From NCBI GenBank assembly GCA_013289165.1, contig JABDAL010000002.1:3278-67277 (forward strand): a stretch of 64,000 nucleotides of DNA, read 5' to 3'. Of the stretch, positions 1-58,587 are shown one piece after another; the stretch's first letter is position 1; each line of letters opens with the position of its first letter. The DNA is from Bacteroidota bacterium. GTDB lineage: Bacteria; Bacteroidota; Bacteroidia; JABEUT01. The notes under the pieces were generated by a model. It was not told the origin of the DNA and made no database searches. It worked only from the letters and a program-made list of their open reading frames with translations. Both the position numbers and the translations under genes were made by a program.

Positions 1-369
1 AATGAAGGGGCAAAAGACTTTCAACTCGAAAAGATGAAAGACGAGAAACCCCTCTATACCCATGTATTGGAAACAGCCTCCAAGTGGGGAAAGAAAGAGA
101 ATACCATGTTTGTAATAGGCGCTACCAAGGAAGAAGAATTTAAACGTGTCCGCGAAATACTGCCCGAACATTTTCTGCTTGTGCCCGGTGTAGGCTCGCA
201 GGGTGGTGATATGGAAGAGGTGATTAAATTAGGGGCAACGAAAAATGGCAGGCTATTGATTAATGCATCAAGGAGCATATTATATGCCGGCAATGAACAG
301 GACTTTGCCGCCAAAGCAAGGGAGGAAGCATTCAGGCTAAAGCTACAAATGGAAAGTGGGTTCCATTGA
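1..369 (+). CDS. pyrF: Orotidine 5'-phosphate decarboxylase, C-terminal part (gene begins upstream of the window)
   Basis: The 111-aa translation contains the LVPGVGSQGG motif typical of type-2 OMP decarboxylase C-termini. The ORF is open to the window edge. Confidence 0.7.
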   Translation, partial: NEGAKDFQLEKMKDEKPLYTHVLETASKWGKKENTMFVIGATKEEEFKRVREILPEHFLLVPGVGSQGGDMEEVIKLGATKNGRLLINASRSILYAGNEQDFAAKAREEAFRLKLQMESGFH

Positions 370-449
370 CAGTATACTGTTCTTCTTAAAAATCCCGATT
401 TAATCTCCCTTTAATCTTATCCAGTTCCTATTTTGATAAGTTTGCATCC

Positions 450-2081
450 GTGAAAAGGTTATCACGTAAACATCTTTACTTTTTTTCCATTCTCTCCGGG
501 TTCTTATTATGGGCAGGATGGCCCCCAAATGGCTTTCCTTTCCTGCTGTTGGTCGCATTCTGCCCTTTGCTTGTTGTAGAGCATTATCTCTATACCCATC
601 GCATTTCTCAAATAAGTTATGGAAGCTTCTGGACCTATTCCTTTCTTTCCATGCTTATATGGAACGCTTTAACCACCTGGTGGGTATGCAATTCCACCAT
701 TGTGGGTGGATTAATTGCCATTATCTGCAATTCGTTTTTCATGGCGGCAATATTGGTGCTGTTTCACTCTGTAAAAAAGCGCATGGGGGCAAAGATTGGT
801 TATGCCTCCCTTCCTGTTTTCTGGCTTGCTTTTGAATATATTCATCTTAACTGGCAATTAAGCTGGCCCTGGCTTACCTTGGGCTTTGGTTTCTCCAATT
901 ATGTATGTTTTTTGCAATGGTATAAATTTACGGGCCCGCTGGGTGGTTCTTTATGGATATGGCTCTGCAACATTGCCGTATTTGTTTTCATCTGTAAAAA
1001 ATGGTTAAGTACTATATCATTATCTATTAATCGTATTGGTATTCCCTTGGCGTTGATTATTCTGCCAAGCTGGGCATCCTTTCTCATATACTGGTCACAT
1101 CCTTTACCCGACAAGCAAAAGGGAGTCAACGTGGTGGTGGTGCAACCCAATATTGACCCTTACAACGAAAAATTTTCCGGCAATTATGCAGAACAACTAA
1201 CTAAAATGTTTGCGTTGGCAGACACGAAAGTTGACAGCACTACTTCCTACCTTATCTTCCCTGAAACAGCTCTCACTGATTCAGAAATATGGGAAAATAA
1301 ATTCAGTGACAATGCAAGTATCCGCCAGGTGTGGGGATATCTGCACAAACATCCCAACTTAAAACTTATTACGGGAGCCGAAACCTACAAGGCATACCTG
1401 GATGGGGAAAAGCCAAGTGAAAGCGCTCGCAAATTTGATAGCGAAGACGGTTATTATGATGCCTTTAACACAGCCATGCAGATGGATTCTTCAAAAAGAA
1501 TAGAAGTTTATCATAAAAGCAAACTCGTCCCCGGTGTAGAGTTTATGCCATTTTCCAAATTATTAGCCCCATTGGGCAAATTGGCATTCGACTTGGGCGG
1601 AACCTCAGGAACACTGGGAACACAGAAAGAACCCTCCGTTTTTTATTCTTCCTTCTCCAAAACTACTATTGCTCCTGCTGTTTGTTATGAATCTATTTAT
1701 GGGGAATATATAGGACAATATATTAAGAAAGGTGCCCAACTGCTGGTAGTTATTACCAATGATGGCTGGTGGAAAGATACACCCGGCTATAAACAACACC
1801 TGTGTTATGGAGCCATGCTTGCTGCTGAATCGGGAAAAGACCTGGTACAATGCGCCAATACTGGTATTTCGGCAATAATAGATGAAAGGGGAGCAATTTT
1901 ACAAAAAACCAAGTGGTGGGAACCTGCGGTTATTTCCGCCTCACTTCATCCCAATAACACCCGTACATTTTATTCTCTGCATGGAGATTATTTAGGCTTC
2001 TATGCCATTATTTTCAGTGTCTTGATAATACTTTTTGTAAGTATCAAAAAAGCTACCGGCTTTTTTATTTCAAAAGGGTAA
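450..2081 (+). CDS. lnt: Apolipoprotein N-acyltransferase
   Basis: GTG start. A polytopic N-terminal membrane domain is followed by a carbon-nitrogen hydrolase domain ([26 protein letters not shown]). The length of 543 aa is typical of Lnt. Confidence 0.85.
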
Positions 2082-3681
2082 CCGTGCCCGTATAGTGGTG
2101 TATTGTCCCTGCAGGATCAGTTACATTTACCTGGTATATATACAGCCCCTGCTGGCAAACTTGCGAACCATTGCTTATTGCACCATTCCAGCCCTTTGTA
2201 ATATCATTGGTATAATATACTTGCCCCCCCCAACGGTCAAAAATGAACATTTCAAAGTTGGCAAACTCAGTACCTTTTGGAATAAAAACAGTATTAAGTC
2301 CACCTCCGTTCGGGCTAAAGGCATTCGGAATATAGAATGTGTACTGCTCACCTATTCTAATACATTGAGTAGCCGTATCGGCGCAACCATGGGTATCTGA
2401 AACAATAAGGCTTACACAATAAATCCCCGTATCCGAATAGGTATGCGTAGGATTGGAAAGTGAACTGCTAGTATCTGTTTTATCATTAAAATTCCATTCC
2501 CAGTCAATAATTGGATATTTTCCGCTTGATGTGCTGTTAAAAGAAACTGTTGGATAAATAATGTTTACCGGGCTGGGTGTATACGAAAAACTGGCCGTAG
2601 GTAGAGGATATACGGTTATCATATTAGAAGTCTGACGAGTTGATGAACACCCCCCCGAACTTACTACCGACAAGCTTACACTGTATTGTCCCGGCTCCTT
2701 ATAGCAATGATCGGGGTATTGTCCCGTGCCTGTTCCCCCATCGCCAAACGACCAGTCCCACTCAACAATTGGGGCAGCCGGAGTAGTATTGGCTGCAAAA
2801 AACTGGGTACATAGCGGGGCACACGCCGCACTTAGGTTAGATGCGAAAACAACCACCGGCACAGGGGTTACTATTACGCTCACAGTATTCATAGCCGTTC
2901 CACATCCCGTTGTATAGTCTACCGTATAAACAGTTGTCGCCTGAGGAGATACTGATACATATGCTGTAGGCATATTACCCGGTTGCCAAACATAGGTACC
3001 TCCACTGGGTGTTCCTGTTGCCGTTAAATTTACCGTAATTCCCGTACAAATTACTTTCGTTGTGCTCGCGGCAACCGTAGGCAAAGGAGTAACATCCACC
3101 GTAAATGTGGTTGAATTAGTACAATTATTACTGTCTGTACCAACAACTGTGTAAACAGTGGTACTTCCGGGATTTGCCGTTGTTGTAGAACAGGTCGGAC
3201 AGCTTAAACCCACGTTAGGTGACCACACATAAGTTTTAGCCCCCGAAGCAGTAAGGGTAGTGGAATTTCCGGCACAAATATGGTTATTGCCTGTTACTAT
3301 AACCGTTGGTTTAGAGACTGTAATATAATTGGGTTCCGTCATCGTATTTGAACCGGATGAATTAGTGGCAGTAAGTGTAACCGCATAGGTGCCCGGTTTG
3401 TTATAAATAACGGTAGGGTTTTGCTTGGTAGAAGTACTAGGTGTCCCTCCGGCAAAAGTCCAGCTCCAGGAGGTAGGGCTATTCGATGATAAATCGGTGA
3501 AATGTACACTATCGCCGGCACAGATAATTGTACTGCTGGCAGAAAAATTGGCAACAGGGGCAACACCGCCCTTTATGTTATGCTTCTGCAATGGATTGAA
3601 AGAAACCCCACCGGCAGATAAGCAAAAGCAGGTAAGCGCGGCACTAAGAATGATACATGATATAGTACTCCTCTTCTTCAC
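2065..3681 (-). CDS. Secreted PKD-repeat protein with a T9SS type-B (gliding-motility-associated) C-terminal domain
   Basis: Signal peptide, then repeated Ig/PKD-like modules (VxFTDxS...WxF). The C-terminus ([17 protein letters not shown]...[13 protein letters not shown]...GWNG) matches the CHU_C/type-B T9SS sorting domain pattern. Confidence 0.7.
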
Positions 3682-3814
3682 TGCAATACGTAAAATGAAT
3701 GCACAAATATAAGCAAAAAAAGGCTATTTTGGCTAGAAAACATTTCAACTACAGACTGTTTAAAATATTTATGCCGCCTACCCACATTTATCTTATTACA
3801 ATAGACACCTCTTC

Positions 3815-4084
3815 CTAAGCATTTTTATTTTCAATTTTGACTTGATTCATATTCTTTTCAGATTGTGCTGACTTATCTTCCTCTCTATTTATTATTTTTA
3901 TACCTGTCCACCATGCCACAACGGCTGATATTATAAAACACCACAACCAAGCGCGTTTGATCAATTTCTCATGTTTTGGACACTTCTTAAATAGGTGTCT
4001 TTTTATCTGATTTTCAAATATGGGCATTAACGTAGCTATTGATGCTGTTGTTAACGCTATTTCTTTTACATGTAGATCAATCAT
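3815..4084 (-). CDS. Small hypothetical membrane protein in the AT-rich region
   Basis: 89-aa ORF with one hydrophobic helix. There is only ORF evidence, and the surrounding GC content is very low. Confidence 0.25.
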   Translation of the reverse strand: MIDLHVKEIALTTASIATLMPIFENQIKRHLFKKCPKHEKLIKRAWLWCFIISAVVAWWTGIKIINREEDKSAQSEKNMNQVKIENKNA

Positions 4085-4201
4085 TTTTTATATTTTTACT
4101 TTAAACTTTTAGATATAAGATGGATTATCTATTCCTAATCGTGAAAACTCCTATGTAAAATTAAAAAATAATGTTCATTTTTGTATTTAACAATAAATTA
4201 T

Positions 4202-4224
4202 GGTAATTATACTAATCTTTGACG
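4202..4224. repeat. Left copy of a 23-bp perfect inverted repeat (ggtaattatactaatctttgacg). Its partner is at 8755-8777.
   Basis: The reverse complement of 4202-4224 is identical to 8755-8777 over 23 of 23 nt. The AT-rich similarity continues a few bases outward from both copies. Confidence 0.8.
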
Positions 4225-4297
4225 TATCAAAGAAATTAAAGATATTTAAAACGCATCGTAGTTATTATTAGTATATTTAACCTAAAGAATAATTAAT

Positions 4298-4486
4298 ATG
4301 AAGACAATCAAAACCGTTGAAGAATTTCAATTGTGTATCGACGAAGTAAATAAGACAAAGAAAGAAATGAATGTGAAAATTGAAATGACTGATTTTGAAA
4401 CTGAAAAAGTAAGAAAAAAGTTAAAGATGGATGGAGTAGATGTTGTAGTGAAGTCAGAATATGATGTTATAAAACCTTTAGAATAA
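4298..4486 (+). CDS. Hypothetical 62-aa protein
   Basis: A short, charged, K/E-rich ORF followed by a rho-independent terminator. Nothing else supports it. Confidence 0.3.
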   Translation: MKTIKTVEEFQLCIDEVNKTKKEMNVKIEMTDFETEKVRKKLKMDGVDVVVKSEYDVIKPLE

Positions 4487-4600
4487 TGTCAGTTGTACAA
4501 AACAGGAGAATTGCCTCTATTTAAATCAAATGGTGGTTCTATCACCTTGAATATTTCATTTTAAGTATGTAGCTCTGTTTTGCTAAGCCAACTGACTTTT

Positions 4601-4630
4601 ACCCGTAGTTTTCGCTACGGGTTTTTTATT
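4601..4630 (+). terminator. Rho-independent terminator
   Basis: Stem acccgtag/ctacgggt (8 bp) with a 6-nt loop, followed by a ttttttatttg run. Confidence 0.5.
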
Positions 4631-4699
4631 TGCTTACTTGGCGCAAATATACGCTTTATCCCGTCTTTATTGCTTAAAAGTTACGTTTTACCCTATTTG

Positions 4700-5806
4700 T
4701 AAATCCTAGAGTTAAAAAGTCGTTTTAATAGGTAAAAATAGCCCTTTTTGAGGGCTAATGAAAATTATTTTTCATTGATTATCAAAGATTTATAAGCGCT
4801 GTATTGAAAAATTAGCTATTTTTATAAGCGTGTCAGAGTTACTATATAGAAACCAAACATGGAAAACAAGTATAATTTTAAAGGTTTCATTTCGTTTTTG
4901 AAAATTTTTAAAGATGAACAAACATGCCGAGAATTTTTAGAGCACTTAAGATGGGGAGGAAAACCAGTATGTGTGAATTGTGGAAACAGCGAAAAGATAT
5001 ATAGATTGAAAAGTGAAAGAACACTCAAATGTTCTAAATGTGATAGAAATTTTAGAGTAACTAATGGCACTGTATTTCATTCAACTCACATTTCACTTCA
5101 AAATTGGTTTATTGCAATATATCTATTTTCTTCAAATAAAAATGGTCTATCATCTTGCCAATTAGCAAAACACTTGGAGATAACTCAGCCTAATGCCTGG
5201 TATGTACTTGATAGAATAAGAAATGTAATGGATAAAAGTAAACAATTTGATGAAATACTGGAAGGTATTATCGAAGCCGATGAATCGTATATTGGAGGCA
5301 AGAATAAAAATAGACACTGGGATAAAAAATTCAAATATAGTCAAGGTCGTTCTGTTGTAGACAAGAAACCAGTATTCGGAATATTACAAAGAAATGGAAT
5401 GGTGAAGGTGTGGACACTGGATAAATTGGATGGTGTAGAAATGAAAACAATTATAAGGACAAATGTTGTAAAGAAATCTATTGTTTGTACAGATGAATAT
5501 AGAGTATATAGAGGATTAAAGAATAAGAAAAGATTTAAGCATTATGTAATAGATCATAGCAAAAGTCAGCATAAAATAGATGAATTTTATCATACGAATA
5601 ATATTGAAAATTTCTGGAACTTCATAAAAAGAGCAGTGACCGGCACTTATCATAAGGTGGATAAAATATATCTGAATAAATACGCCAAAGAAGCAGCTTA
5701 TAGATACAATACAAGAAAGATGAGCGATGGAATAAGATTTATTGAATTACTTAAAGAATGTGTGCAAACAAAATTGAAATAGTAAATTTACGACTTTCCG
5801 TTATAG
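4700..5806 (+). mobile_element. IS1595-family insertion sequence (boundaries approximate)
   Basis: A single transposase ORF of IS1595 type. The candidate ends share only an aaagtcgt core (about 4716 and 5790-5797). Terminal inverted repeats could not be defined confidently. Confidence 0.35.
4859..5782 (+). CDS. IS1595-family transposase (N-terminal zinc ribbon plus ISXO2-like DDE domain)
   Basis: The N-terminal CxxC...CxxC zinc ribbon (CVNCGNSEKIY...CSKCDRNF) and a 307-aa length are typical of IS1595-family transposases. The protein is basic and K-rich. Confidence 0.8.
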   Translation: MENKYNFKGFISFLKIFKDEQTCREFLEHLRWGGKPVCVNCGNSEKIYRLKSERTLKCSKCDRNFRVTNGTVFHSTHISLQNWFIAIYLFSSNKNGLSSCQLAKHLEITQPNAWYVLDRIRNVMDKSKQFDEILEGIIEADESYIGGKNKNRHWDKKFKYSQGRSVVDKKPVFGILQRNGMVKVWTLDKLDGVEMKTIIRTNVVKKSIVCTDEYRVYRGLKNKKRFKHYVIDHSKSQHKIDEFYHTNNIENFWNFIKRAVTGTYHKVDKIYLNKYAKEAAYRYNTRKMSDGIRFIELLKECVQTKLK

Positions 5807-5879
5807 ACCTCTTGAAGGGAATCGAACCCTTAACCTACTGCTGCGAAACAGTTGCTCTATCAGTTTGAGCTACAAGAGG
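5807..5879 (-). tRNA. tRNA gene (73 nt, CCA not encoded). The anticodon arm is non-canonical. The anticodon may be TCG (Arg), but this is unresolved.
   Basis: On the minus strand it folds into a cloverleaf. The acceptor stem is CCTCTTG/CAAGAGG, the D-arm is GCTC-AAACTGATA-GAGC, and the T-arm is AAGGG-TTCGATT-CCCTT. The anticodon arm ACTGTTTCGCAGCAGT folds only as 5 bp plus a 6-nt loop, or 4 bp plus an 8-nt loop. Confidence 0.75.
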
Positions 5880-6197
5880 AGTGGAATAAAAACCACTCCT
5901 CTTTATAACAGGTTCTATCAAAAAGTTTTTCTCTAAACATCAATCTAATAATTCTTAGTAGGGATTAAGAAAATTAATTACCTTTGTGATTGATAGCGTA
6001 TAGTTATCGCCTTGTAGTTGGAAAACTGAGAATCTTCACAATACGACAAGGATATTACAGTCTACAGCGTGGGCTTGTTCTATCTTTTCGTATAGGTTCT
6101 TCTCAGTACCTCCAACAGAAGACGGGACTATTAGTCCCACGCTGCTGAGAGAAATATAACACTCATTCGGGGCTTGTGGGTACAAAACAATTGTACC

Positions 6198-6857
6198 ATG
6201 AGTAGGTATTTTAAAAAAGGGAAATTTGACTCAATCACAAGAGAAGAAGGTGTTTTTGTGTTGTTTAATGATGAAAACAAGCAAGTCTATTGTATTGGAA
6301 TTATCAAGAATGAATTTAATAAGCGCAAATTACGAGGGAAAATTTCTGGGAAAAGCAAAAATGATAAATGGTCTGATGGATATTGGAAAGCTTTAAAAGT
6401 AAAAAATATAAAAGATGTAGAAAAGGCATTAAATTCAATATTGAAGAGAATACGAAATGGAACAAATGAAAAACTAACTATTCTTTTGTTTTTTCTATTA
6501 TTTGCAAATTTGGTTGTCGGTCAAATAAACGATAAAGTTGTTAAAACAAATTTTTTTGGTGTAGTATCAAATAATGGAAATGTTGAACAAACTTCAGTTG
6601 AAGAAGTAAATATCTTCCATTTGATTTATGCTAATGAAAAATTAAAGATAGTCAAATGTTATTTTTATGATGGTTCAACAACGTCATACGATGACATGAC
6701 ATATGAAAAAACCGATAATAATGGTTCTGTGTGGTATGGTTGTACTGATGAGGATACCAAAGTAAATAGGTTATTTATCATTATGCATAATGGTAATGTT
6801 TTAATGATATTCACTGGTTCTGAGTATTACGTGTTTTCTAAAATAATTACAAAGTAG
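6198..6857 (+). CDS. Hypothetical protein with an N-terminal GIY-YIG-like nuclease motif, a central hydrophobic segment and a C-terminal domain
   Basis: GVFVLFNDENKQVYCIG fits the GIY-(10-11 aa)-YIG spacing, with downstream R/K residues. The hydrophobic LTILLFFLLFANLVVGQ resembles a transmembrane helix or signal peptide. The track ORF starts at 6174, but the ATG at 6198 (MSRYF) is the more likely start. Confidence 0.35.
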   Translation: MSRYFKKGKFDSITREEGVFVLFNDENKQVYCIGIIKNEFNKRKLRGKISGKSKNDKWSDGYWKALKVKNIKDVEKALNSILKRIRNGTNEKLTILLFFLLFANLVVGQINDKVVKTNFFGVVSNNGNVEQTSVEEVNIFHLIYANEKLKIVKCYFYDGSTTSYDDMTYEKTDNNGSVWYGCTDEDTKVNRLFIIMHNGNVLMIFTGSEYYVFSKIITK

Positions 6858-6894
6858 AATAATTGGAGTTATTGCATATATTATATACAATAAC

Positions 6895-7548
6895 ATGTTT
6901 ATACTTATATTTGTACTATTATTAATATTGATAATGGACACCACAGGACTTATAAATTTCTTTAAGGAAAAGTATCGATCTTATATTGCCGGATTAATAC
7001 TTCTAATAGCTATTATTGGTTCTATATATGAGATTTTCTTTAAACCTAAGGAAACTACAATGTTTAGTATTACAAGTAATCAGTCTACAATAGATACCCC
7101 TCATAAAGCAGTTGCATTAGGAAACGATAATGTTACTGTTACTGGAAATGGCAATCATATTGTTGGAGGTAGCGGGAATACAGTAGGAGTTAATGGAGAT
7201 GTAAATACTGTTCCACATATTAATGACACAATAAAAAGGAAAATTTTAAGTGTGCTTGTCAAAATTCAAGAAACTGATAATTTAAAATTACCTACTATAT
7301 TCTTGAAAAATGAACCCGGTTGTGATGAAGGATATTTAAAAGAAGTTGACTCATTTCTCCATAAAGGATATACTGTTCAAGAGCATTTTAATGATGGTAG
7401 CAATTATAATTTACCTTTGAATTCGATAGATATCGAGTCACATAAAGAGAGTAATATCATTGTTGTATTAATATCCAGGACTAATCCAGATTTTAAAACA
7501 AACCCTGTCCATTATTATATGAGTCAACATGAAGTTACTATAAAGTAA
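6895..7548 (+). CDS. Hypothetical membrane protein (2 N-terminal TM helices) with a GN-rich repeat region
   Basis: Two hydrophobic helices at the N-terminus, then GNDNVTVTGNGNHIVGGSGNTVGVNGDVNTV repeats. Codon usage is very AT-rich and no known motif was recognised. Confidence 0.4.
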   Translation: MFILIFVLLLILIMDTTGLINFFKEKYRSYIAGLILLIAIIGSIYEIFFKPKETTMFSITSNQSTIDTPHKAVALGNDNVTVTGNGNHIVGGSGNTVGVNGDVNTVPHINDTIKRKILSVLVKIQETDNLKLPTIFLKNEPGCDEGYLKEVDSFLHKGYTVQEHFNDGSNYNLPLNSIDIESHKESNIIVVLISRTNPDFKTNPVHYYMSQHEVTIK

Positions 7549-7641
7549 AAAATTTCAGAATTAGAAATAATAGTGGTTGTTTGTCTTTCGAAGTAAATAA
7601 TTGATATCAGAAGTTATTGTATGTAAAAACCTGCATACAAT

Positions 7642-7935
7642 ATGAGAAAATTAATACGATTTATTTTGCGTACATTTGGGGTAAAATATACAAAAATGAG
7701 CAAGATAAAAGATTCCGGCGATTTCACTACTGTTACCATAGATAAATCAACCTATAAAATAGAGTCCATAGAGGCAGTTAGACCAAAAGATTTGACTGGT
7801 AAAGGAGAGCATTATGGGATTGAAATACTATTTCATAGCGGTAAAGATGAGATAGGTTATCTCAAACCAGAAGAAAGAGATGAAGATCTTAGAAAATTAG
7901 GCAACCTGATGAAAGGTAAATTAAACGTTAATTAG
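7642..7935 (+). CDS. Hypothetical 97-aa protein
   Basis: ORF only. A 7-bp inverted repeat (ttgtatg...catacaa) sits immediately upstream of the ATG. Confidence 0.3.
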   Translation: MRKLIRFILRTFGVKYTKMSKIKDSGDFTTVTIDKSTYKIESIEAVRPKDLTGKGEHYGIEILFHSGKDEIGYLKPEERDEDLRKLGNLMKGKLNVN

Positions 7936-8154
7936 CTTGATTAGTAAAAGACGTTAATACCTTTTATATAAGTAGAAATGTAAATAATAAAAAGGTGGTT
8001 AACAGTAAACCTAGAAAGCCTACAAAACCAATACCATATTCCGGTACTCCTCTGATACCAATTCAATAAGGTTGAAGTTATTCCATGTAATTTGTAATTA
8101 ATACATGCAAAATGAATTGGCAAAAACTTTTTACTTTCAATTTAAGAAAGAAAG

Positions 8155-8529
8155 TTAAAGGCTCTGGAACAGAGCAGGATTTGAGGCTTCAAATACATTT
8201 AAAGCGTCTATCTCCCGAAATAAAGATAATCCTTCCTGAGCAACATTTAAACTCAAAGGCACTTTCACACCAGCTATCTTCATATTTGTACGATTCATTT
8301 GTTGATCATGGTTTAAAATGCTTAGAAACTGTTCCTGCCATCGTTGATAAATATAACAAAGAGCACGATACTCATTTTGTTCTTCATGTAAATATTGTTG
8401 AATTGTGACACTTTCTAATGCTGTATCAGAAACAGTAAGCAAAATGGTCAATAGTTCTTTTGATAAAAGTGTTTTAGTTTTCTTATCAAAATAAGAAACT
8501 ACTTTTTGAGCAACGTCGTAGTTAGTCAT
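8155..8529 (-). CDS. Hypothetical 124-aa protein
   Basis: ORF only. It overlaps the opposite-strand ORF 8112-8408, and which of the two is real is uncertain. Confidence 0.25.
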   Translation of the reverse strand: MTNYDVAQKVVSYFDKKTKTLLSKELLTILLTVSDTALESVTIQQYLHEEQNEYRALCYIYQRWQEQFLSILNHDQQMNRTNMKIAGVKVPLSLNVAQEGLSLFREIDALNVFEASNPALFQSL

Positions 8530-8754
8530 AGTAGTGTATTAGGAATATAAAGATAGTAAGAATTTTAAATAGGCAAATTAAGCCTCTAGCCCAATACTGG
8601 TCGGATAAATCAAATGCTAAAAACAATTTTAAAGCTAAATATGAAAATAGTAGATTCATAACACTTAGAACTTAGCTAATAAACTTTAGGCGATTTAATA
8701 ATAGAGAAAACAACTAATATGAAATTAGCTGATAATTAGGCATTAAAATTTTAA

Positions 8755-8777
8755 CGTCAAAGATTAGTATAATTACC
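8755..8777. repeat. Right copy of the 23-bp perfect inverted repeat (cgtcaaagattagtataattacc)
   Basis: Exact reverse complement of 4202-4224. It ends 9 bp before the ATG at 8787. Confidence 0.8.
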
Positions 8778-8786
8778 TAAATTATT

Positions 8787-10070
8787 ATGACAGCAGTTGT
8801 AGGTATATTAAACAGAAAAGCGGTAGCTATTGCAGCAGATAGTGCCGTTTCAATAGGCGGAAAAATTTATAATAATGCACTAAAAATATTTACACTATCC
8901 AAATATTATCCTATTGGGATTATGATTTATCAAAGCGCTAACTTCATGAATACTCCTTGGGAAACCATCATAAAAATGTTTAGACAGAAATTAGATGACA
9001 AGGAATTGGATACTGTTGAAGCATACCAGATAGAATTCATAAAATATTTGAAAGAAATGAATTTTTTTTCTAGTGAGCAAGATCAAAAAACTTATCTGGA
9101 AGTATTAATCTATCAACTATTAAATGTTATTAATAAAGGGGTAATTGGCAAGATGTTTCCTAAAGATTGGGATGCTAATGATAAAGCTATATTTCTTGCA
9201 CATATTGAAAAACATTTAGATGACAACTATTTTGTACATCTTAATACTTATGTTACATGTGATGATTTTACAAACTATTCGATAGATGAGTACTTACAAT
9301 ATTGTGATAGTATAATAAAATCTGTATATGAACAATACTATAATGGTGTAACTATTACAGACAATATAAAGAATAAGCTAAACAAAATGTTCTATCTTTT
9401 ACATAAAGGAAAGGAGTCTTTTTCTCCATACAGCGGACTTATCTTTGTTGGATTTGGTGAAAAGGAAATATATCCTGCCTTAGTTCCAATAATTGTATCG
9501 TTTGCCTTTGATAAAAAATTAAAATACTATGTTTGGGAACAAAGAAAAACGAATATTACTAATGATTATTTTATGCGTAGTAGTATAACTCCATTTGCGG
9601 ATACAGATGCTATGCAAACCATTTTAACAGGTATTGAACCGAAATTAGAAAAAACATACCTCGATAATTTCAAACGGTTTTTTGAAAAGTACAATGATGA
9701 TATTATTAATGTACTTGGGGCAGCAGGGACTAATGTTGCTACAAAAATAAAATCATTAGATATTTCTACATTAACTCAACAATATGAAAACAGTATGACG
9801 GCAGATAAACAAGAAAATTATATTGCCCCACTACTTGATGCTGTTGCAAATTTATCGAAAGAAGATTTAGCAGAATTGGCGGAAAGCCTTATATATTTGA
9901 CTTATTTACAAAAAAGGATTACCTTTGCAGAAGAAAATGTTGGCGGTTCAGTTGATGTTGCTATAATTTCAAAAGGAGATGGATTTGTTTGGATTAAAAG
10001 GAAACACTATTTTAAACCAGAGCTAAATCATAATTTTTTAGAAAACTATCTATATAAGCCTAAGAAATGA
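8787..10070 (+). CDS. Ntn-hydrolase (proteasome beta/HslV-like) family protein with a large insertion and an N-terminal Thr nucleophile
   Basis: Begins MTAVVGILNRKAVAIAADSAVSIGGKIYNNALK. After Met removal this gives Thr1, with Asp17 and Lys32/33 spaced as in proteasome beta subunits. The C-terminus ENVGGSVDVAIISKGDGFVW resembles the proteasome-beta SGG...v.v.itkdG strand. At 427 aa it is far longer than HslV, Anbu or BPH. Confidence 0.45.
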   Translation: MTAVVGILNRKAVAIAADSAVSIGGKIYNNALKIFTLSKYYPIGIMIYQSANFMNTPWETIIKMFRQKLDDKELDTVEAYQIEFIKYLKEMNFFSSEQDQKTYLEVLIYQLLNVINKGVIGKMFPKDWDANDKAIFLAHIEKHLDDNYFVHLNTYVTCDDFTNYSIDEYLQYCDSIIKSVYEQYYNGVTITDNIKNKLNKMFYLLHKGKESFSPYSGLIFVGFGEKEIYPALVPIIVSFAFDKKLKYYVWEQRKTNITNDYFMRSSITPFADTDAMQTILTGIEPKLEKTYLDNFKRFFEKYNDDIINVLGAAGTNVATKIKSLDISTLTQQYENSMTADKQENYIAPLLDAVANLSKEDLAELAESLIYLTYLQKRITFAEENVGGSVDVAIISKGDGFVWIKRKHYFKPELNHNFLENYLYKPKK

Positions 10071-10261
10071 AAACACAAATTAAAAAAATAGCAAATGAAG
10101 CATCCTCCATATCGAGGCTTTCATTAGATTTTTGTTCTGAATCCTATAATATTCTTGATAAAAAGGAGAAAAGCCCAGAAGAAAGAGCAGAAATAATATC
10201 AGATGCTTTAATTCAAAACATACGCAATCAGTTCAGTGTAATGGAAATTGCTAAGAAATAA
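10067..10261 (+). CDS. Small 64-aa protein translationally coupled to the Ntn-hydrolase gene
   Basis: Its ATG overlaps the upstream stop codon (AAATGA). The protein is acidic and helical-looking with no recognisable motif. Confidence 0.35.
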   Translation: MKTQIKKIANEASSISRLSLDFCSESYNILDKKEKSPEERAEIISDALIQNIRNQFSVMEIAKK

Positions 10262-10278
10262 ACTGATTCTTCCTCTTT

Positions 10279-11421
10279 TCAGCAGGCAACTTTCCCGTTA
10301 TAGTAGTAATTTTTACATTTCCCGAAGTTTGACCGACCATTTTCCTGTAAGAACTGCCCATAGGCAATCTCCAGTTCCCGATATTTCCCCAGGCCTTTGT
10401 TGTCATTGACAACCCTTTCGCAAATGGTATCTGCCAAATCAAATTGTATTTTGGTATCCAGTTCCATTTTTCGATTTACAAACTGCTTGATTTGGTGGAT
10501 ATATGCGAACCAGTTTGCATAATTGCCAATATATTTTGTTGAAATACCCCTGTGGTACTCATTTACAAAGCTCTTGAAATTGTGTATATAGGCATTGGCA
10601 CTTTGCACGTGCACAGTTTTATCCATCCAATCCCTATGGTAAGTTCTGGCTTTAAAGGCTTTATAAGAGATGTTGTTATCCTCAAAAAAGGCTCTGTAGG
10701 ATGTGTGCTTATCGCAACGGACCTCTATGTCTTTAAACTTTCCAGGTATGTTAAAATACTTGTCCAAATGAACTTTTCGAACTCTGCCAATATTACTTAT
10801 ATGAAAATCCAGTTTTTTGGAATTTCGTCCGTATGTAACCAGTACCTTCGTATTATAAGGTGATTCTCCAACGGCCACTTTCCGTCTCCATTTCCTGTAC
10901 CCGTTTTTATTTGTGATGCCCATGTCCTGCCTGCCTTTTCTACTGAGCATCAAATTGCAATCGTCAAATTCTATTACCTCATTCTCAAATGTTATATTTT
11001 GATTGCTGGTTAAAGCTGAAAGTAGTTTATGCCTCCAGTTAAAGGCCGTTTGTTCGGTTATGCCTATTCGTTTTTTTACTTCTTTTAGGGATGAGAAATT
11101 TAAGCTCATGAAGTCTTCTACAAACAGATTCCATTTGTTAAGCTTCTGAATATTGCTTAAAACCGTGTTTGTTCGGTAAGTGAAACTTTTCTTGCAGGTA
11201 CGGCAGATATATCTATGATGGCCGTTCCTGATGCCATTTTTAACAATTTTACCTGAGCCACAATGCCTGCAAGCAGTAACATCGGCATGCTCGTCAAATA
11301 TTGAATAACTGCTTCTTAAATACTCGATTAAATCTTGCTTTTCCTTGACGGATAGGGTGTTAACCCTCTTTTTTAAACTCTGAATGTCCACTTTTTTACT
11401 CTTTTTCGTTTCTTTCATCAA
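10279..11421 (-). CDS. IS1595-family (ISXO2-like) transposase with an N-terminal zinc ribbon
   Basis: CRHCGSGKIVKNGIRNGHHRYICRTCKKSF zinc ribbon followed by a DDE-like domain. It is unrelated in sequence to the 4859-5782 transposase. Confidence 0.7.
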   Translation of the reverse strand: MMKETKKSKKVDIQSLKKRVNTLSVKEKQDLIEYLRSSYSIFDEHADVTACRHCGSGKIVKNGIRNGHHRYICRTCKKSFTYRTNTVLSNIQKLNKWNLFVEDFMSLNFSSLKEVKKRIGITEQTAFNWRHKLLSALTSNQNITFENEVIEFDDCNLMLSRKGRQDMGITNKNGYRKWRRKVAVGESPYNTKVLVTYGRNSKKLDFHISNIGRVRKVHLDKYFNIPGKFKDIEVRCDKHTSYRAFFEDNNISYKAFKARTYHRDWMDKTVHVQSANAYIHNFKSFVNEYHRGISTKYIGNYANWFAYIHQIKQFVNRKMELDTKIQFDLADTICERVVNDNKGLGKYRELEIAYGQFLQENGRSNFGKCKNYYYNGKVAC

Positions 11422-11593
11422 ATCCGCTTTCTTTTATAGACGCAAATATAATAAAAATACTTTACAACTACCTCGATATCTTCAGATTATATCAAAATAT
11501 TTATCCCTCAGCTATTTATACCACCCATCAACCAATGTCTAGAGTAGAGCCAAAAATTACATTAAGTGACTGGTTTTATGAGCCTAATATCTT

Positions 11594-11640
11594 TACGTCA
11601 CATTGCCCGTTTCGTGAAAAACCGTGACATAACCGCTTTT
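11594..11640. repeat. Terminal-repeat-like block containing ccgtgacataaccg
   Basis: tacgtcacattgcccgtttcgtgaaaaaccgtgacataaccgc is about 90% identical to the reverse complement of 48236-48280. Confidence 0.6.
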
Positions 11641-11717
11641 CAATTTATTTGGATTTTGTTAATTTTTTCGTAAAAAATCCTGCCAGAATATACCATTTGG
11701 TACAGGGCAGATTTGTG

Positions 11718-22977: not shown

Positions 22978-24216
22978 TTAACCAACCCAACCATTATGAA
23001 GAAAACTATTATAAAAATAAAGCTGCAAAAATATGTTACCTATTAAACAAACGGAGTATGATATTTTTGAAATATACTTGTTAGGATGAGATATGAACAA
23101 GAAAAGCATTACAAATACCGAAAGAGCTAAATATTTTAATGTTTCGACGATATGTACATAGCTGCCCAACAATAGCCAAAAAACATTTAAGAGCAAGAAT
23201 ATAAGTACATATTCTCTCGTTGTCCAGGATTTTTTTAAAAGCGCAGAAAAACCCAAAAAGAAAAAGGGAGTAGCAAAAACAAAACGGTTAAGGCTGAATA
23301 GGCTGCCGCCACGTGTGAATAAAACAAACCAGCATATCCCGGCCAAATAAATAATAGAAAATAAAGTGGGCTCTTGTTTCATTGATTCTCCAATAGTAGA
23401 CTTCTTAAATGCAAAATAAGCAATTGCTACAGTTGCTATTATACCTACCAAAAAAGCTGAACCATCCAGTTTAACAATATCATCTCCTCCCCAAGAAGTA
23501 AGATGAAACTTGGGTATCTGCAAATAATTATTCCACATTTTTTGTGAATGAAAAAATGCAAAATAATCATGCGTATTAAAGTATTGTATAAAAAAAACGA
23601 GAATGATTCCCAGTAAGATGGGAAGAATTAAAAAAATAAACCTTTGAAGGGTTAACTTTCTATTTTCTATAATATTCAGAATAATTACTGCTGGAATAAA
23701 GACATATACTACCGGCCGAGTACAGCTTGCCAGTAGCATACCCACAAATATTATCCAGTTATTTTGCTTACTCATCCCAATTAAGGCCAATGCAACTGAG
23801 AAAAAGAATACGGATTCTGTGTAAGGTAAAAATAGAAATATCAATGAAGGGAAAGAAAGTATAATCAAAAACTCCTCCGCAGAAAACTTAAAGAAAGTTA
23901 CAAGTAAAGAAGCGGAAAAAATAAAAAGTATCCCGTTAAACAAAACTACACCATATATACCACACCTTAATATTTTCCATATTAATGGAAAAAGGGGGAA
24001 AAAAGCAGTTCGAAATCCTAAGTAATCTATATGGGCAATATGTTCATAGTGAATTGCATCCCAATGCATGAAACTATCCCGATTAAAAACAGTCTGGTTA
24101 TTGGTAAATCGTAAAAAAAACATCAATACTGCAAATGCTCCTATAAAATAGGCTAAAGCAAAAAAAAAGTTTCTTATGAAACAATAATAAAATGAATTGT
24201 AATTGGAACTAATCAC
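22978..24216 (-). CDS. Polytopic membrane protein, putative mannosyltransferase-like (PIG-V/GT76-like, GT-C)
   Basis: HWDAIHYEHIAHIDYLGFRTAFFPLFPL resembles the conserved PIG-V/Mannosyl_trans2 region. About 10 TM helices. Its ATGA start overlaps the upstream gene. Confidence 0.35.
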   Translation of the reverse strand: MISSNYNSFYYCFIRNFFFALAYFIGAFAVLMFFLRFTNNQTVFNRDSFMHWDAIHYEHIAHIDYLGFRTAFFPLFPLIWKILRCGIYGVVLFNGILFIFSASLLVTFFKFSAEEFLIILSFPSLIFLFLPYTESVFFFSVALALIGMSKQNNWIIFVGMLLASCTRPVVYVFIPAVIILNIIENRKLTLQRFIFLILPILLGIILVFFIQYFNTHDYFAFFHSQKMWNNYLQIPKFHLTSWGGDDIVKLDGSAFLVGIIATVAIAYFAFKKSTIGESMKQEPTLFSIIYLAGICWFVLFTRGGSLFSLNRFVFATPFFFLGFSALLKKSWTTREYVLIFLLLNVFWLLLGSYVHIVETLKYLALSVFVMLFLFISHPNKYISKISYSVCLIGNIFLQLYFYNSFLHNGWVG

Positions 24217-25736
24217 TCAATTATAAATTTGCTAGTAGCCACAGTAATTCCACTCTGGTTGATAATCTTGCATATATAGATTCCAGAAGCAAGCCCACCT
24301 TTCTCAATGTGAGCAATAGACTGTTCATGTCCAATCGGTTGAAGTGAGGCATTTTGAACAATACATTGTCCAAAAACATTATATATATTGAACAGATAAC
24401 TTGCCCCAGCTATTCCTTGAACTAATATTGTAGACGAGGATTTTACAGGATTTGGGAATATCTTAATCCCTGGATGAATAGTAGCTTGATCAATAGTGTT
24501 AGTTGGAATACATAGACAAGTATCTTTATATAAGTGGATAGAAAGCGTATAATTATTTACTACACTATCGTTTTTCAGACGAACTACATAAACATCATAT
24601 ACGCCCTGTGTATAGCCAAGGCTGTTTGTAGCACCTACAAAGACCGCATTACCATTTTTTGCAAGTGCAATAGAAGTGCCTAGTTGGTACCCTGTTCCAC
24701 CAAAAGAGGGACCGGATAAGGGTACTCCGCCTATATTAATATGCCATATACGCATAGATTCTGGTCCCAAACCGTATCCTGCATTACTGGCTGATACAGC
24801 AAGATAAGAGCTATCGGGTGCTTGAATAGCATCTTTACCAATATTACGTCCTGTGGATAGATGATATATCTGCATCCATTGCATATCACCCATACTATCT
24901 AACTTTAAAAGCATTTCATCAGGTTTACCCGGTTCAACGCTGTCAGTAGAACCAAAAACAATAAAGCCCCTATCAACTGTTCCACGAATTGAGTTACCTA
25001 CATTATCATTTGTACTTCCGTATGTTGTATATTTTTTAACCATCCCCTTACTATCCATCAATATAAAATATATGTTGGTATCTCCAATACCAAAACTGGT
25101 TGTAGCTCCTATAATGGCATACAAGGAATCCTCATGAACACAAATAGAATTTCCTATACTGTAACCGCCCTCTCCTCCAATAGCTCTTGTCCATAATGTA
25201 TCACCGTTTTTATCTATGCGAATTACATACACATTTCCATTCCCCGGTCCGAAACTATATGTGAGCCCACACATAATAAAACCGCTGTCGGGAAGCTGCT
25301 GCAGAGAATATCCAAAATCCCAATCAGAGCCACCATACGTTTTTTGCCATTGCACTTTTCCAAGGGAATCTGTCTTTACAAGCAACACATCATATCCGCC
25401 TGCTCCATAGCTGTCTGTAAAACCAAGAAAGGCATAGCCTTTGTCAAATGTAGTGGCAACGGAGAAACCTTCCTGGTTCATAGCCCCGCTATAAGTCCTT
25501 GACCACTGATGATTGCATAATGAATCTGTTTTAATAACATAAAAGCTCGTATTGCCACAGCCAAAACTATTGGTAGTACCAATCATAATGTATCCCCCGT
25601 CATACGTGGGTTTTATTTGGTTACATACATCATTCTGTATGCCACCATAGGTATAGATATAAGCCGTATCATTAAATTGGGATAGCATCGAAAAGCTAAG
25701 CAATAGAAAGAAACCAAAGAATACTGTTTTTTTCAC
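24213..25736 (-). CDS. Secreted beta-propeller repeat protein with a T9SS type-A C-terminal sorting domain
   Basis: Signal peptide, then repeats of the form T.SFG.G..D...K.DS.G. The C-terminus IFPNPVKSSSTILV...GIYICKIINQSGITVATSKFIIE matches the Por_Secre_tail pattern. Confidence 0.6.
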   Translation of the reverse strand: MKKTVFFGFFLLLSFSMLSQFNDTAYIYTYGGIQNDVCNQIKPTYDGGYIMIGTTNSFGCGNTSFYVIKTDSLCNHQWSRTYSGAMNQEGFSVATTFDKGYAFLGFTDSYGAGGYDVLLVKTDSLGKVQWQKTYGGSDWDFGYSLQQLPDSGFIMCGLTYSFGPGNGNVYVIRIDKNGDTLWTRAIGGEGGYSIGNSICVHEDSLYAIIGATTSFGIGDTNIYFILMDSKGMVKKYTTYGSTNDNVGNSIRGTVDRGFIVFGSTDSVEPGKPDEMLLKLDSMGDMQWMQIYHLSTGRNIGKDAIQAPDSSYLAVSASNAGYGLGPESMRIWHINIGGVPLSGPSFGGTGYQLGTSIALAKNGNAVFVGATNSLGYTQGVYDVYVVRLKNDSVVNNYTLSIHLYKDTCLCIPTNTIDQATIHPGIKIFPNPVKSSSTILVQGIAGASYLFNIYNVFGQCIVQNASLQPIGHEQSIAHIEKGGLASGIYICKIINQSGITVATSKFIIE

Positions 25737-25846: not shown

Positions 25847-27445
25847 TCAGTTTCTTAAATCGTAAATGAGTATATTTTTATACCGGCCTATTTTCTTAGT
25901 GAGAAAAGGGCTTAGCCATTCCTTACTTATAAAGGAGGTGTCATTAATTATCAAATATTTAGCCCCAAGTTCCATACATTTCTTTATAGACATTTGATTA
26001 TTGCTTTCATCCTGCCCATAATCAGTGTATCCCTTCTGGTCCATTAAGTATAGGCTGATATTTATACTTTGGTCAGGAATGCTAATCACTTTATCTTCTC
26101 TTTTTATACCTAAACTTCTCAGGTAGGGAGTAATTGTTTCAAAAGCTTGAAAGCCTTGCTTGTATGAAGCGTCCATATAGTTCCAATATCCCTGGTGCAT
26201 GCCATCCATAGCAATATTATATTCTGCTACGGGATAATCAGGGGAATATCTCATATTTATTTGTACCGAACAATAGTATATGCTTAGCAACAGGGCAATA
26301 AATCCAATCACTTTTACTTTTACAGAAATAAATATTTCAACTTGCTTCTTTTTTAAATAATCGAGGAAAGTCAATAAAATAAGGGGAACAAGAATCAATA
26401 AATTAATTAGGTAATAATCGTGCACATAAAATACCTGGAACCACAGAATAATATATGCAATACAAGCCATCAGAACAGTGCAGGTAAGAAATAACAAAAA
26501 TCTGCTTACACTTTTATACACTAAAAATAGTACCACTAAAATCAACAACACTCCAATCAACAAAAATGGAGCCAGGTACACAGGTAACTGTTCTGTAAAT
26601 AATTGATTTAGTATTGTATAATTCTGTAATGAGTGTGTCTCCCAAATCGGAAGGATGGAAGTACTAAAAGCTCCTCCCACGTGAGCGTTATTATAATGTA
26701 TAGCGAAAATAGTCCAACCATAAATGATACAAAAAACAGCCAGGAATTGAAATATATAATGGAGTGGTTTACTAAATATTTTTTCATTTGTTTTAAATTT
26801 ATAAATATTTAAACTTTCAAGCACAAAAGCAAGGAATATTGGAGCAAAAGAAATAAGCGCGCTGATTTTTGTAAGCCCTGCAATAAGAAAGAAAAACATT
26901 GAAATAGTAAAGAAGCGCATTTTCCCACCTGAATAAAACTTTTGAAAAAAGAACCAAGCTATAAAGGCAAAACTAAGTGCAGAGGTATCCGCAAGAAAAT
27001 TATATGCATAATACGCGAAAATGGTAGATGAAAATAGTAGCAAAGAAACTAGTAGCGCCCATGCGCCATCTTTCAGAATATTTTTTGAAAGGCAGAAAAG
27101 AGCATATAAGCCTGTAAATGCTATGGAAATATTTACTAACCTGAAAATAAATTCATGGTACCCAAAGATTTTCCACAACAAAGCAACAAAATAATACAGC
27201 CACGGACATTCGCTGGTACAAGTTTTACCATCACCATTAGGCCCGCTCCAGTGAATAGTTGGGGAGAAAAAGTGCATTCCTTCTTTGTAATAGTTCAACG
27301 CTATTGAAAGACAATCACATTGCCTCCACTGATGGACAGAAAACGGGCGCCTGAATAAAATTAATTGATAGCTATACGCATATCCAATCAGCAACAAAAG
27401 AATAAAAAAGAGGTATGTCCATTTATTCCTTTGAATTGATTTCAT
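25847..27445 (-). CDS. Polytopic membrane protein, GT-C glycosyltransferase-like, with the same architecture as 21376-22956
   Basis: About 12 TM helices plus a C-terminal soluble domain of about 130 aa. It heads the same-strand operon. Confidence 0.4.
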   Translation of the reverse strand: MKSIQRNKWTYLFFILLLLIGYAYSYQLILFRRPFSVHQWRQCDCLSIALNYYKEGMHFFSPTIHWSGPNGDGKTCTSECPWLYYFVALLWKIFGYHEFIFRLVNISIAFTGLYALFCLSKNILKDGAWALLVSLLLFSSTIFAYYAYNFLADTSALSFAFIAWFFFQKFYSGGKMRFFTISMFFFLIAGLTKISALISFAPIFLAFVLESLNIYKFKTNEKIFSKPLHYIFQFLAVFCIIYGWTIFAIHYNNAHVGGAFSTSILPIWETHSLQNYTILNQLFTEQLPVYLAPFLLIGVLLILVVLFLVYKSVSRFLLFLTCTVLMACIAYIILWFQVFYVHDYYLINLLILVPLILLTFLDYLKKKQVEIFISVKVKVIGFIALLLSIYYCSVQINMRYSPDYPVAEYNIAMDGMHQGYWNYMDASYKQGFQAFETITPYLRSLGIKREDKVISIPDQSINISLYLMDQKGYTDYGQDESNNQMSIKKCMELGAKYLIINDTSFISKEWLSPFLTKKIGRYKNILIYDLRN

Positions 27446-56844: not shown

Positions 56845-57852
56845 ATGAAACTAACCGCTCATCCCAAAATCATAATAAGCCGCACCGACAACATTGGTGA
56901 TGTAGTGCTCACTCTTCCCCTTGCGGCGTTTTTGAAAAAGAAATTCCCGGATGGGGAATTGATTTTTCTAGGCAAAAAATACATTAAACCTCTCATAGAT
57001 TGCTGCAAAAACATTGACCGGTTTGTAGACTGGGATACTCTTGCTTCTATTCCTGAACAGGAAAGAGCAATTGTACTTAAAGATATAGGGGCAGAAGTTA
57101 TCATCCACGTTTTTCCCCGCCCTGAAATTGCGCGTACAGCTTACAAAGCAGGAATAAAATACAGGATAGGAACCAGCCATAGATTCTATAATTGGCTTTA
57201 CTGTAATGAGAGAGTTGATTTTACCCGGAAAAACTCTCCCCTGCATGAAGCCCAGCTAAACTTTAAGCTGGCAGAACCTTTAGGAATTACAGATATTCCC
57301 TCCTTAGATGAACTCGGTAAAAGCTATGGGCTGACAAAACTGCCTGTTTTAAATGAAGAGTGGAAAAAACTTTTATCTAAAGATAAATCCAACCTTGTTA
57401 TTCATCCGCTATCACGCGGCAGTGCACGGAACTGGGATTGGAAGAATTATAACCGGTTGATTGAAATACTTCCCAAAGACAAATACAATATATTTATAAC
57501 AGGAACGGAAGCAGAGTCACTACCAATTACCGAAAATATTTTGCGCTACCATTCTTCCGTGATTGACCTGACAGGCAAATTAGACTTTGTGGAACTAATA
57601 GCATTTATTGCAAATATTGATGGACTGGTGGCAGCCAGCACCGGGCCTTTGCATATTGGAGCCGCATTAGGTAAAAAAGCAATAGGTTTATATCCATCTA
57701 TACGGCCTATGCACCCGGGGCGTTGGGCTCCATTGGGGCCAAAAGCAAAGTTTCTTGCCCTCGATAAAGATTGTGTGGAGTGTAAAAAGGGTAGCCATTG
57801 CTCTTGCATTAATACAATTAAGCCGGAGCAGGTGAAGGGGCTGTTGGTGTAG
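56845..57852 (+). CDS. Glycosyltransferase family 9 (LPS heptosyltransferase-like)
   Basis: The ISRTDNIGDVVLTLP N-terminus is typical of GT9. Length 335 aa. Confidence 0.7.
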   Translation: MKLTAHPKIIISRTDNIGDVVLTLPLAAFLKKKFPDGELIFLGKKYIKPLIDCCKNIDRFVDWDTLASIPEQERAIVLKDIGAEVIIHVFPRPEIARTAYKAGIKYRIGTSHRFYNWLYCNERVDFTRKNSPLHEAQLNFKLAEPLGITDIPSLDELGKSYGLTKLPVLNEEWKKLLSKDKSNLVIHPLSRGSARNWDWKNYNRLIEILPKDKYNIFITGTEAESLPITENILRYHSSVIDLTGKLDFVELIAFIANIDGLVAASTGPLHIGAALGKKAIGLYPSIRPMHPGRWAPLGPKAKFLALDKDCVECKKGSHCSCINTIKPEQVKGLLV

Positions 57853-58068
57853 AATTTATAATATCCGAACTAACATAGAAAGATGATGCTTTGGGAAACT
57901 TAATATGGAAGATATAAAATTTATCAAGAAAATTATTGAGCTTTACAAAAAAGCGAAAAGACCAATTTTTAAGAATGAGAAAAGAAATATTAAACGAGGT
58001 AGAGGTCATTCAATTTCAAGCAAGGTAGAAGACCTTTTTGCCGTGATAAACTTTCAGGTAAAATAGAG

Positions 58069-58563: not shown

Positions 58564-58587
58564 ACGTACTTATATCTCATAGTTATT

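Follow-up and report, generated by a model that had tools for sequence, protein, structure and literature searches.

An IS1595-family transposon carrying a conserved structured RNA and a tRNA-like gene in an AT-rich tract of a Bacteroidota genome

We analysed a 64,000-nucleotide stretch of the genome of a Bacteroidota bacterium (assembly GCA_013289165.1, contig JABDAL010000002.1, positions 3,278 to 67,277; hereafter the window, whose coordinates are used throughout), and within it the AT-rich tract at 3682-11717 and the transposon that occupies 4202-8777 of that tract. The guanine-plus-cytosine (GC) content, profiled in 500-bp steps, was 25-33% across 3751-10250 and 40-47% on both sides, bearing out the sharp drop described in an initial annotation of this DNA. 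By segment, it was 42.9% in the left flank genes, 28.7% in 3682-4201, 30.0% in 4202-8777, 29.3% in 8778-10261, 36.8% in 10262-11717 (the region of a second transposase) and 39.7% in the right flank. The window as a whole has a GC content of 38.4% (standard deviation 4.6%) and contains no second extended low-GC tract in its 64 kb; short low-GC spots (28-32%) also occur at 23501-24250, 26251-26750 and 57751-58750.

Read from left to right, the transposon consists of an inverted repeat, an open reading frame (ORF) of 62 amino acids (aa), a terminator, a transposase gene, a tRNA-like module, a promoter box with a structured RNA, ORFs of 219, 217, 97 and 124 aa (the last on the minus strand) and a second inverted repeat. 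Its features are as follows, with the loci used for comparison cited by L numbers.

4194-4201: target-site duplication, left copy, TAAATTAT, abutting the inverted repeat and identical to 8778-8785
4202-4225, plus strand: left terminal inverted repeat, GGTAATTATACTAATCTTTGACGT, identical at 24 of 24 positions to the reverse complement of 8754-8777
4298-4486, plus strand: conserved acidic ORF of 62 aa at the left end of the element, with homologues in seven elements
4601-4632, plus strand: intrinsic-terminator-like hairpin and T-run after the 62-aa ORF, with a counterpart hairpin in L003 and L011
4859-5782, plus strand: transposase 1, 307 aa, IS1595 family, with zinc ribbon and DDE domain (Pfam, NCBIfam)
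5807-5879, minus strand: degenerate tRNA-like gene, placed identically by Rfam (54.9 bits) and ARAGORN
5874-5903: 11-bp hairpin, one arm of which contains the 5' acceptor strand of the tRNA-like gene; L032 has a hairpin of other sequence at the same place
5979-5986, plus strand: Bacteroidota-type -7 promoter box, TACCTTTG (consensus TAnnTTTG)
5991-6150, plus strand: conserved structured RNA of about 160 nt, with a P1 hairpin, long-range helices A, B and C and a GCGUGGG/CCCACGC stem; 116.5 bits with R1, the covariance model of the motif that we used to find further copies
6161-6181, plus strand: small hairpin, located between RNA and start codon, whose GGG loop is conserved; double-sided changes occur at each of its 5 pairs in an alignment of 11 sequences
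6198-6857, plus strand: passenger ORF 1, 219 aa from a conserved ATG, with a GIY-YIG-like N-terminus, a hydrophobic signal-like segment and a C-terminal domain
6895-7548, plus strand: passenger ORF 2, 217 aa, with N-terminal transmembrane segments
7642-7935, plus strand: passenger ORF 3, 97 aa, with 33-43% identical ORFs near the right end of L107, L109 and L003
8155-8529, minus strand: passenger ORF 4, 124 aa, 67% identical to an ORF within the L011 element
8754-8777, minus strand: right terminal inverted repeat, the perfect 24-bp partner of 4202-4225
8778-8785: target-site duplication, right copy, TAAATTAT, stopping 1 bp short of the start codon (ATG) of a 427-aa gene

The ends of the element can be placed to the nucleotide. 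The longest inverted repeat of the region (30 nt, 4196-4225 and 8754-8783) splits into a terminal inverted repeat and a flanking direct repeat, and the terminal-repeat-like sequences mentioned in the initial annotation are real 24-bp terminal inverted repeats bordered by an 8-bp target duplication. The GGTA start of the left repeat agrees with the ends of 47 related elements. IS1595-family insertion sequences (ISs) generate target duplications of 8 bp, and the present element combines a duplication of this size with terminal inverted repeats and a transposase that has both a DDE domain and a zinc ribbon, placing it in that family. The insertion point lies 9 bp upstream of the 427-aa gene, and joining 4201 to 8786 restores an intergenic region of roughly 120 bp from which an 89-aa ORF and that gene diverge. 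We conclude that 4202-8777 is one discrete, intact, single-copy IS1595-family transposon of 4,576 bp with passenger genes (a "transporter IS"), and that it moved as a single unit into the 89-aa/427-aa intergenic region, which was already AT-rich. PMC3129680, citing Siguier et al. 2009, records ISs carrying passenger genes for the IS1595 family. Close around transposase 1 (4350-6250), short inverted repeats gave chance-level matches only; the true ends are 650 bp and 3 kb off.

The 30-nt repeat could instead be a duplicated promoter or operator through which the 62-aa gene and the minus-strand 124-aa gene are regulated together, in keeping with the position of each arm upstream of an inward-reading gene and with the TTGACG-like hexamers found there. 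We consider this extremely improbable. An exact 8-bp direct repeat borders the arms, which is the mark of transposition and not of regulation, and a check of homologues recovered the same pattern in 47 other elements, which have different repeats with a GGTA-type start and 8-bp duplications of their own. Being a transposon end and having a regulatory role are not mutually exclusive for this repeat.

These related elements came from a sample of 80 genome loci that were chosen by transposase homology alone and scanned for inverted repeats and 8-bp duplications. Inverted repeats (consensus GGyAAyTATATAC) with an exact, AT-rich 8-bp duplication were present in 47 of the 80 loci, bounding elements of 1.9-6.5 kb; given these sizes, all 47 mapped elements carry cargo. 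The homologous elements L011 (TTATTTTA) and L008 (TTATGATT) have their own repeats and exact duplications at unrelated sites, as do L003, L032, L078, L085, L108, L109 and others. An entire clade of IS1595 elements in Bacteroidota is thereby shown to be made up of cargo carriers, 47 of which are mapped with ends and target duplications. The L107 element splits a MutS_V (MutS2-like) gene into two ORFs (L107 4097-5350 and 8724-9044). In Flavobacterium members of the clade, a gene with a P63C domain, which is a Bro-like phage domain, lies upstream of the RNA and in translational coupling with the transposase gene (L078 5902-6921; L085 5915-6868).

Transposase 1 matched Pfam DDE_Tnp_IS1595 (PF12762, 1e-33) and Zn_ribbon_IS1595 (PF12760, 4e-12) as well as NCBIfam transpos_IS1595 (NF033547, 181 bits, cutoff 75), and it retains all invariant columns of a 20-sequence family alignment. 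The gene is single-copy. Its nearest relatives are 61-68% identical, and the best annotated ones, at about 40% identity, are named just "IS1595 family transposase".

Downstream of the transposase, every close relative displays a common pattern: tAGCGUUAGCUAu, then GCGUGGG, a spacing of 57-63 nt, CCCACGC, the GGG-loop hairpin and an ATG. Covariation in the raw MAFFT alignment of 11 copies of this RNA was above that of all 500 shuffles and of slid controls. Searches with R1 matched about 30 of the 80 transposase-selected loci, nearly all of them downstream of the transposase and 15 within mapped elements; further matches were obtained beyond the 80 loci, in L107-L109 and in nine IMG/VR contigs. 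Across 35 aligned copies, 84% of the cells were paired, and the covariation score was 0.717 compared to 0.204 ± 0.013 for shuffled and at most 0.129 for slid alignments. Helices A, B and C were 85-91% paired in these copies and had double-sided changes at almost every pair (one example: GC in 16 copies, CG in 11, UA in 5, AU in 1 and unpaired in 0), and an unbiased scan of column pairs found the same three helices. The GCGUGGG/CCCACGC stem (G-G') was 98% paired with few compensatory changes, and an anti-G:G hairpin (CACGC/GCGUG) was 84% paired with covariation not beyond conservation. RNAalifold on the raw MAFFT alignment returned P1 and the G-G' stem only; the long-range helices were defined manually and with the covariance model.

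A TAnnTTTG box lies at most 60 nt upstream of it in 18 of the 35 elements, compared to 4.3% of background 64-nt windows, and a U-run follows the G-G' stem in 28 of the 35 copies. The next ATG is 42-51 nt after the end of the model in most copies and 47 nt after it in the window. The products of the downstream genes are mostly non-homologous and have signal-peptide-like or membrane N-termini. The unit of RNA and gene occurs in both orientations inside elements. G-U (GU/UG) pairs outnumber A-C (AC/CA) pairs 66 to 33, and this excess favours the plus strand as the one that folds. Neither the window RNA nor nine related loci had any match at E<=1 among the 4,227 families of Rfam 15, and literature searches on IS1595 with non-coding RNA, riboswitch or structured RNA returned nothing relevant. 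The RNA is apparently undescribed. Copies are also present on predicted viral or integrative contigs (L098-L106) lacking a nearby IS1595 transposase, beside integrase/ArdA, helicase or XkdF genes; in L105, roughly 0.8 kb separates the RNA from an integrase and a gene for the antirestriction protein ArdA.

Judged by its sequence and surroundings, the RNA is probably a cis-acting leader of the attenuator or riboswitch type. A transcript would start at the TAnnTTTG promoter and enter the structured leader, which could fold either as a long rod of three helices (A, B and C) or as the terminator-like G-G' stem, followed by a U-run in most elements. Which fold forms would then decide whether transcription proceeds into the downstream gene, whose product is usually an unrelated secreted or membrane protein. 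More tentatively, we propose as a possibility that the RNA is a new cis-regulatory class, riboswitch-like or a factor-dependent attenuator, that transposons and phages of Bacteroidota have disseminated, a portable expression switch in front of unrelated secreted or membrane cargo, with the neighbouring tRNA-like gene as a potential partner or decoy. If the RNA is a regulator, it would give a phylum with atypical gene-expression signals a mobile and modular means of controlling accessory genes.

Its often tight linkage to the transposase gene is what one would expect if the conserved structure acted as DNA, for example as a transposase-binding or single-stranded site, and the stem with its U-run could be the mere 3' end of a stand-alone small RNA. 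We think both unlikely. Copies exist in viral contigs that have no transposase nearby, the structure is found in both orientations in elements with a gene start 42-51 nt downstream in most copies, and the enrichment of the promoter box and the excess of G-U pairs point to a plus-strand RNA. The RNA leader, constant in front of variable genes for exported proteins, is the part of this element deserving of follow-up. Its cultured carriers include strains of Flavobacterium, Bacteroides, Chryseobacterium, Pedobacter and Mucilaginibacter; among those with a typical copy are Flavobacterium ajazii SSM4.2 (L078), F. amniphilum KYPY10 (L085), Bacteroides stercorirosoris DSM 26884 (L080) and Chryseobacterium sp. 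JUb7 (L061).

Between the transposase and the RNA lies the tRNA-like gene. The initial annotation had located a tRNA 25 bp from the transposase stop; the place is right, as the 3' end of the gene is at this distance, and two corrections are needed: the gene runs antisense to the transposase, on the minus strand, and is degenerate. The Rfam tRNA model RF00005 scored 54.9 bits against a gathering score of 29, and the RNA (CCUCUUG-UA-GCUC-AAACUGAUA-GAGC-A-ACUGU-UUCGCA-GCAGU-AGGUU-AAGGG-UUCGAUU-CCCUU-CAAGAGG-U) forms a cloverleaf with a T-loop. Its anticodon loop has 6 nt (UUCGCA; or 8 nt on a 4-bp stem) in place of the canonical 7, and ARAGORN labelled it "tRNA-???" with a 2-base anticodon. The D-loop, AAACUGAUA, lacks the G18G19 that is present as GG in the L003 and L032 homologues, position 1 pairs with 72 as C1-G72, and CCA is not encoded. 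A C1-G72 pair together with U3-A70 is unlike bacterial tRNA-Gly identity.

Homologous copies were found at the equivalent internal antisense position in L003 (anticodon ACC) and L032 (anticodon GCC, with a normal loop and the GG present). The three copies have the acceptor stem in common, and their T and anticodon stems differ by compensatory changes; the window copy is the most degenerate of the three. In the sister elements L107, L108, L109 and L011 there is no tRNA-like gene and just 20-46 nt separate the transposase stop from the start of the RNA, so the tRNA-like gene and its hairpin constitute an insertion of about 185 nt. On the plus strand, the hairpin at 5874-5903 probably terminates the transposase mRNA. 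Because the tRNA-like gene is inside the inverted repeats and travels to unrelated sites with L003 and L032, it is carried by the element and is not an integration target.

Pattern scans of the loci, viral contigs and metagenomes yielded no further tRNA-like lineages beyond these three, all other hits being ordinary phage tRNAs. One of the latter, a jumbo-phage tRNA-Arg(CCU) on a 163-kb phage contig (L113 3997-4069), matches the tRNA-like gene in its acceptor and D arms. In two further phage tRNA arrays there is a "tRNA-???" with a 2-base "cg" anticodon like that of the window copy (L094 9970-10044; L095 5078-5152). We regard the tRNA-like gene as a rare passenger, probably of phage-tRNA origin, and as a rare example of a tRNA-derived gene inside an IS. 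The window copy has lost decoding features and is most likely non-decoding or decaying.

It is doubtful that the gene is functional, either as a frameshifting or otherwise non-canonical decoder or as a decoy for tRNA-targeting nucleases. Compensatory changes in the anticodon stem and the T stem have preserved the cloverleaf in three lineages, its Rfam score is well above the gathering score, and a phage tRNA shares its acceptor and D arms, all of which speak for function. Set against this are the 6-nt anticodon loop, the loss of G18G19, the combination of C1-G72 with U3-A70, an anticodon that differs from lineage to lineage (GCC, ACC and "CG") and the great rarity of the gene, with three lineages in the genome, viral and metagenome scans.

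Homologues of the 62-aa ORF (39-54% identity) are found at the equivalent position in L011, L008, L109, L013, L108, L107 and L003, and the protein had no family match in Pfam, NCBIfam, PADLOC or PHROGs. The four passenger ORFs likewise had none in these four collections. Passenger ORF 1 is 27% identical (E 1e-5) to a 240-aa ORF of L003 that itself has a weak GIY-YIG match. At 8155-8529, the L011 homologue identifies the minus-strand ORF as the real gene, not the plus-strand ORF that overlaps it. In the non-coding stretch upstream of the transposase (4640-4858), conservation between the window and L011 is above what a protein identity of 68% suggests; the conserved parts include GCAAATATAcGCTTTAT, which follows the terminator, and some 100 nt directly ahead of the ATG. 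Its conservation suggests that this stretch may be regulatory.

Outside the transposon, the AT-rich tract contains the genes for the 427-aa and 64-aa proteins and for a second transposase.

8787-10261, plus strand: gene for the 427-aa protein, of a large uncharacterised Bacteroidota family, and the overlapping 64-aa ORF
10279-11421, minus strand: transposase 2, 380 aa, IS1595 family (NCBIfam transpos_IS1595, 99 bits, cutoff 75)

The 427-aa protein matched phrog_5990 over its full length (E 1e-92) and has more than 3,700 Bacteroidota homologues of a uniform length of about 430 aa, none with a Pfam domain. Its N-terminus is MTAVVGI..., and its Proteasome/Ntn match in Pfam is sub-threshold only. 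No sequence match was found in the PDB. The AlphaFold model is mediocre (pLDDT 66.7, with the conserved termini below 50), and a Foldseek search with it returned only matches at E>0.3, many of them proteasome subunits, that are uninterpretable. Here the 427-aa gene is always followed by the 64-aa ORF, and the transposon has cut it off from its upstream region.

Transposase 2 passed the NCBIfam cutoff and fell below the Pfam threshold. It is convergent with transposase 1, and its sole local matches are partial ones of 27-32% identity to other members of the clade. A search for inverted repeats with duplications of 3-9 bp around it found nothing convincing, and the exact protein is not on record elsewhere. 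A composite transposon bounded by the two transposases was considered and ruled out: transposase 2 is only distantly related to transposase 1, lies outside the inverted repeats and has no recognisable ends. Among the ORFs of the region, no integrase or recombinase was found in Pfam, NCBIfam or PHROGs, and PADLOC defence-system models gave no match.

In the two nearest relatives available, whose Rax2-like gene is 72-76% identical, the UbiA side is syntenic up to the equivalent of 11718 and the sequences then diverge. The 427-aa gene, transposase 2 and the PKD/LNT flank are all missing at that locus in both, and unrelated genes are found there. Contigs with identical genes all belonged to the same strain, and these relatives provide no clean empty site because the left flank sits elsewhere in both of them. 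The AT-rich DNA beyond the transposon, with the 427-aa and 64-aa genes and the end-less transposase 2, is consistent with older accessory DNA located where synteny breaks. One Logan contig (SRR8422341) matches window 4356-11623 at 100% identity; its left part is the reverse complement of window 1-3314 (reaching about 4218) together with RF-1, OMP decarboxylase and a 169-aa ORF. The junction in this contig (window 4355/4356; L001 5497/5498) is an apparent inversion or assembly chimera, and since it cuts the conserved 62-aa ORF, the arrangement in the window is the intact one.

The initial annotation had described the tract as a mosaic accessory island with two transposases and an internal tRNA gene, and had suggested successive insertions or a tRNA carried by the element. 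A model in which several independent insertions around or beside a chromosomal tRNA gene built up the island, with the two ISs marking its history, has in its favour the two unrelated transposases, the uniformly low GC content from 3.7 to 10.3 kb, the end of synteny with relatives at 11718 and one nested step, the landing of the transposon in already AT-rich DNA. We nevertheless judge it improbable, and for 4202-8777 it is largely refuted: there, four ORFs, the tRNA-like gene and the RNA make up a single unit that has a single target duplication, the tRNA-like gene lies between the terminal repeats and moves with the element (L003, L032), and the search of the ORFs turned up neither an integrase nor a recombinase. 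That earlier interpretation was half right. Accessory AT-rich DNA with IS1595-family transposases is supported, and both transposases belong to the family. The option of a tRNA carried by the element also held, with the same internal position at unrelated sites in L003 and L032. Of successive insertions, just one step is demonstrated, the entry of a transposon into an already AT-rich intergenic region. A loose mosaic bounded by two ISs gives way to a single unit at 4202-8777 defined by inverted repeats and a target duplication, and the count of five hypothetical ORFs to six between the two transposases (219, 217, 97, 124 on the minus strand, 427 and 64 aa) plus the 62-aa ORF upstream of transposase 1. 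The proposed comparison with relatives succeeded in showing that the right border, at 11718, is where synteny ends, and failed to deliver an exact empty site.

Taken as a whole, an account in which a transporter IS with an RNA leader and a rare tRNA-like passenger is surrounded by older AT-rich DNA is very probably the best explanation of the locus. Several observations weigh against parts of it. The element is single-copy, and for the window copy neither a transposition event nor an empty site was observed. The 35-copy alignment was fitted to the model, which inflates pairing, although the raw MAFFT alignment had already beaten all shuffles. The A/B/C and G-G' pairings cross, implying alternative folds or a pseudoknot. 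The U-run is missing in the window copy, as it is in L003 and L107, and with its loss any control in the window copy would not be by intrinsic termination. As 31 mapped elements have no R1 match and viral contigs have copies, the RNA is neither obligatory for the transposon family nor exclusive to it. Finally, the compensatory stem changes argue that the tRNA-like gene was under selection during at least some of its history, and the designation "decaying" may be wrong.

Compared to known systems, the element resembles IS1595 transporter ISs in its single DDE transposase with an N-terminal zinc ribbon, its short inverted repeats starting with GG, its 8-bp target duplication and the unrelated passenger genes that lie between its transposase and its right end. 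It differs from them in that the Bacteroidota clade adds a 62-aa ORF at the left end and a structured RNA between transposase and cargo and, in three lineages, a tRNA-like gene; our literature searches found no IS1595-family report of any of these three features. The RNA resembles riboswitch and attenuator leaders in having a promoter, a covarying folded domain, a stem that a U-run follows in most copies and an ORF at a fixed distance; its two best-supported pairings cross, as alternative folds or as a pseudoknot. Unlike such leaders, the window copy lacks the U-run, the RNA has no match in Rfam 15, and the downstream genes encode unrelated secreted or membrane proteins on mobile elements, not one functional class. 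Prophage "morons" are self-contained units of promoter, gene and terminator through which secreted or membrane proteins are added. The RNA units are like them in being short and autonomous, residing on mobile elements in either orientation and encoding small exported proteins, and unlike them in that the leader is conserved and the gene variable; to our knowledge, prophage morons do not share a common structured leader. The association of a tRNA-like gene with AT-rich accessory DNA recalls the islands and integrative elements that target tRNA genes. In contrast to these, there is no integrase and no direct repeat of the tRNA 3' end, and the tRNA-like gene is internal, antisense to the transposase and mobile with the element. 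A vague "AT-rich island" is in this way resolved into an exactly bounded mobile element: 4202-8777 is an element of a known kind, an IS1595-family transporter IS, with two uncommon passengers, a tRNA-like gene and an RNA leader.

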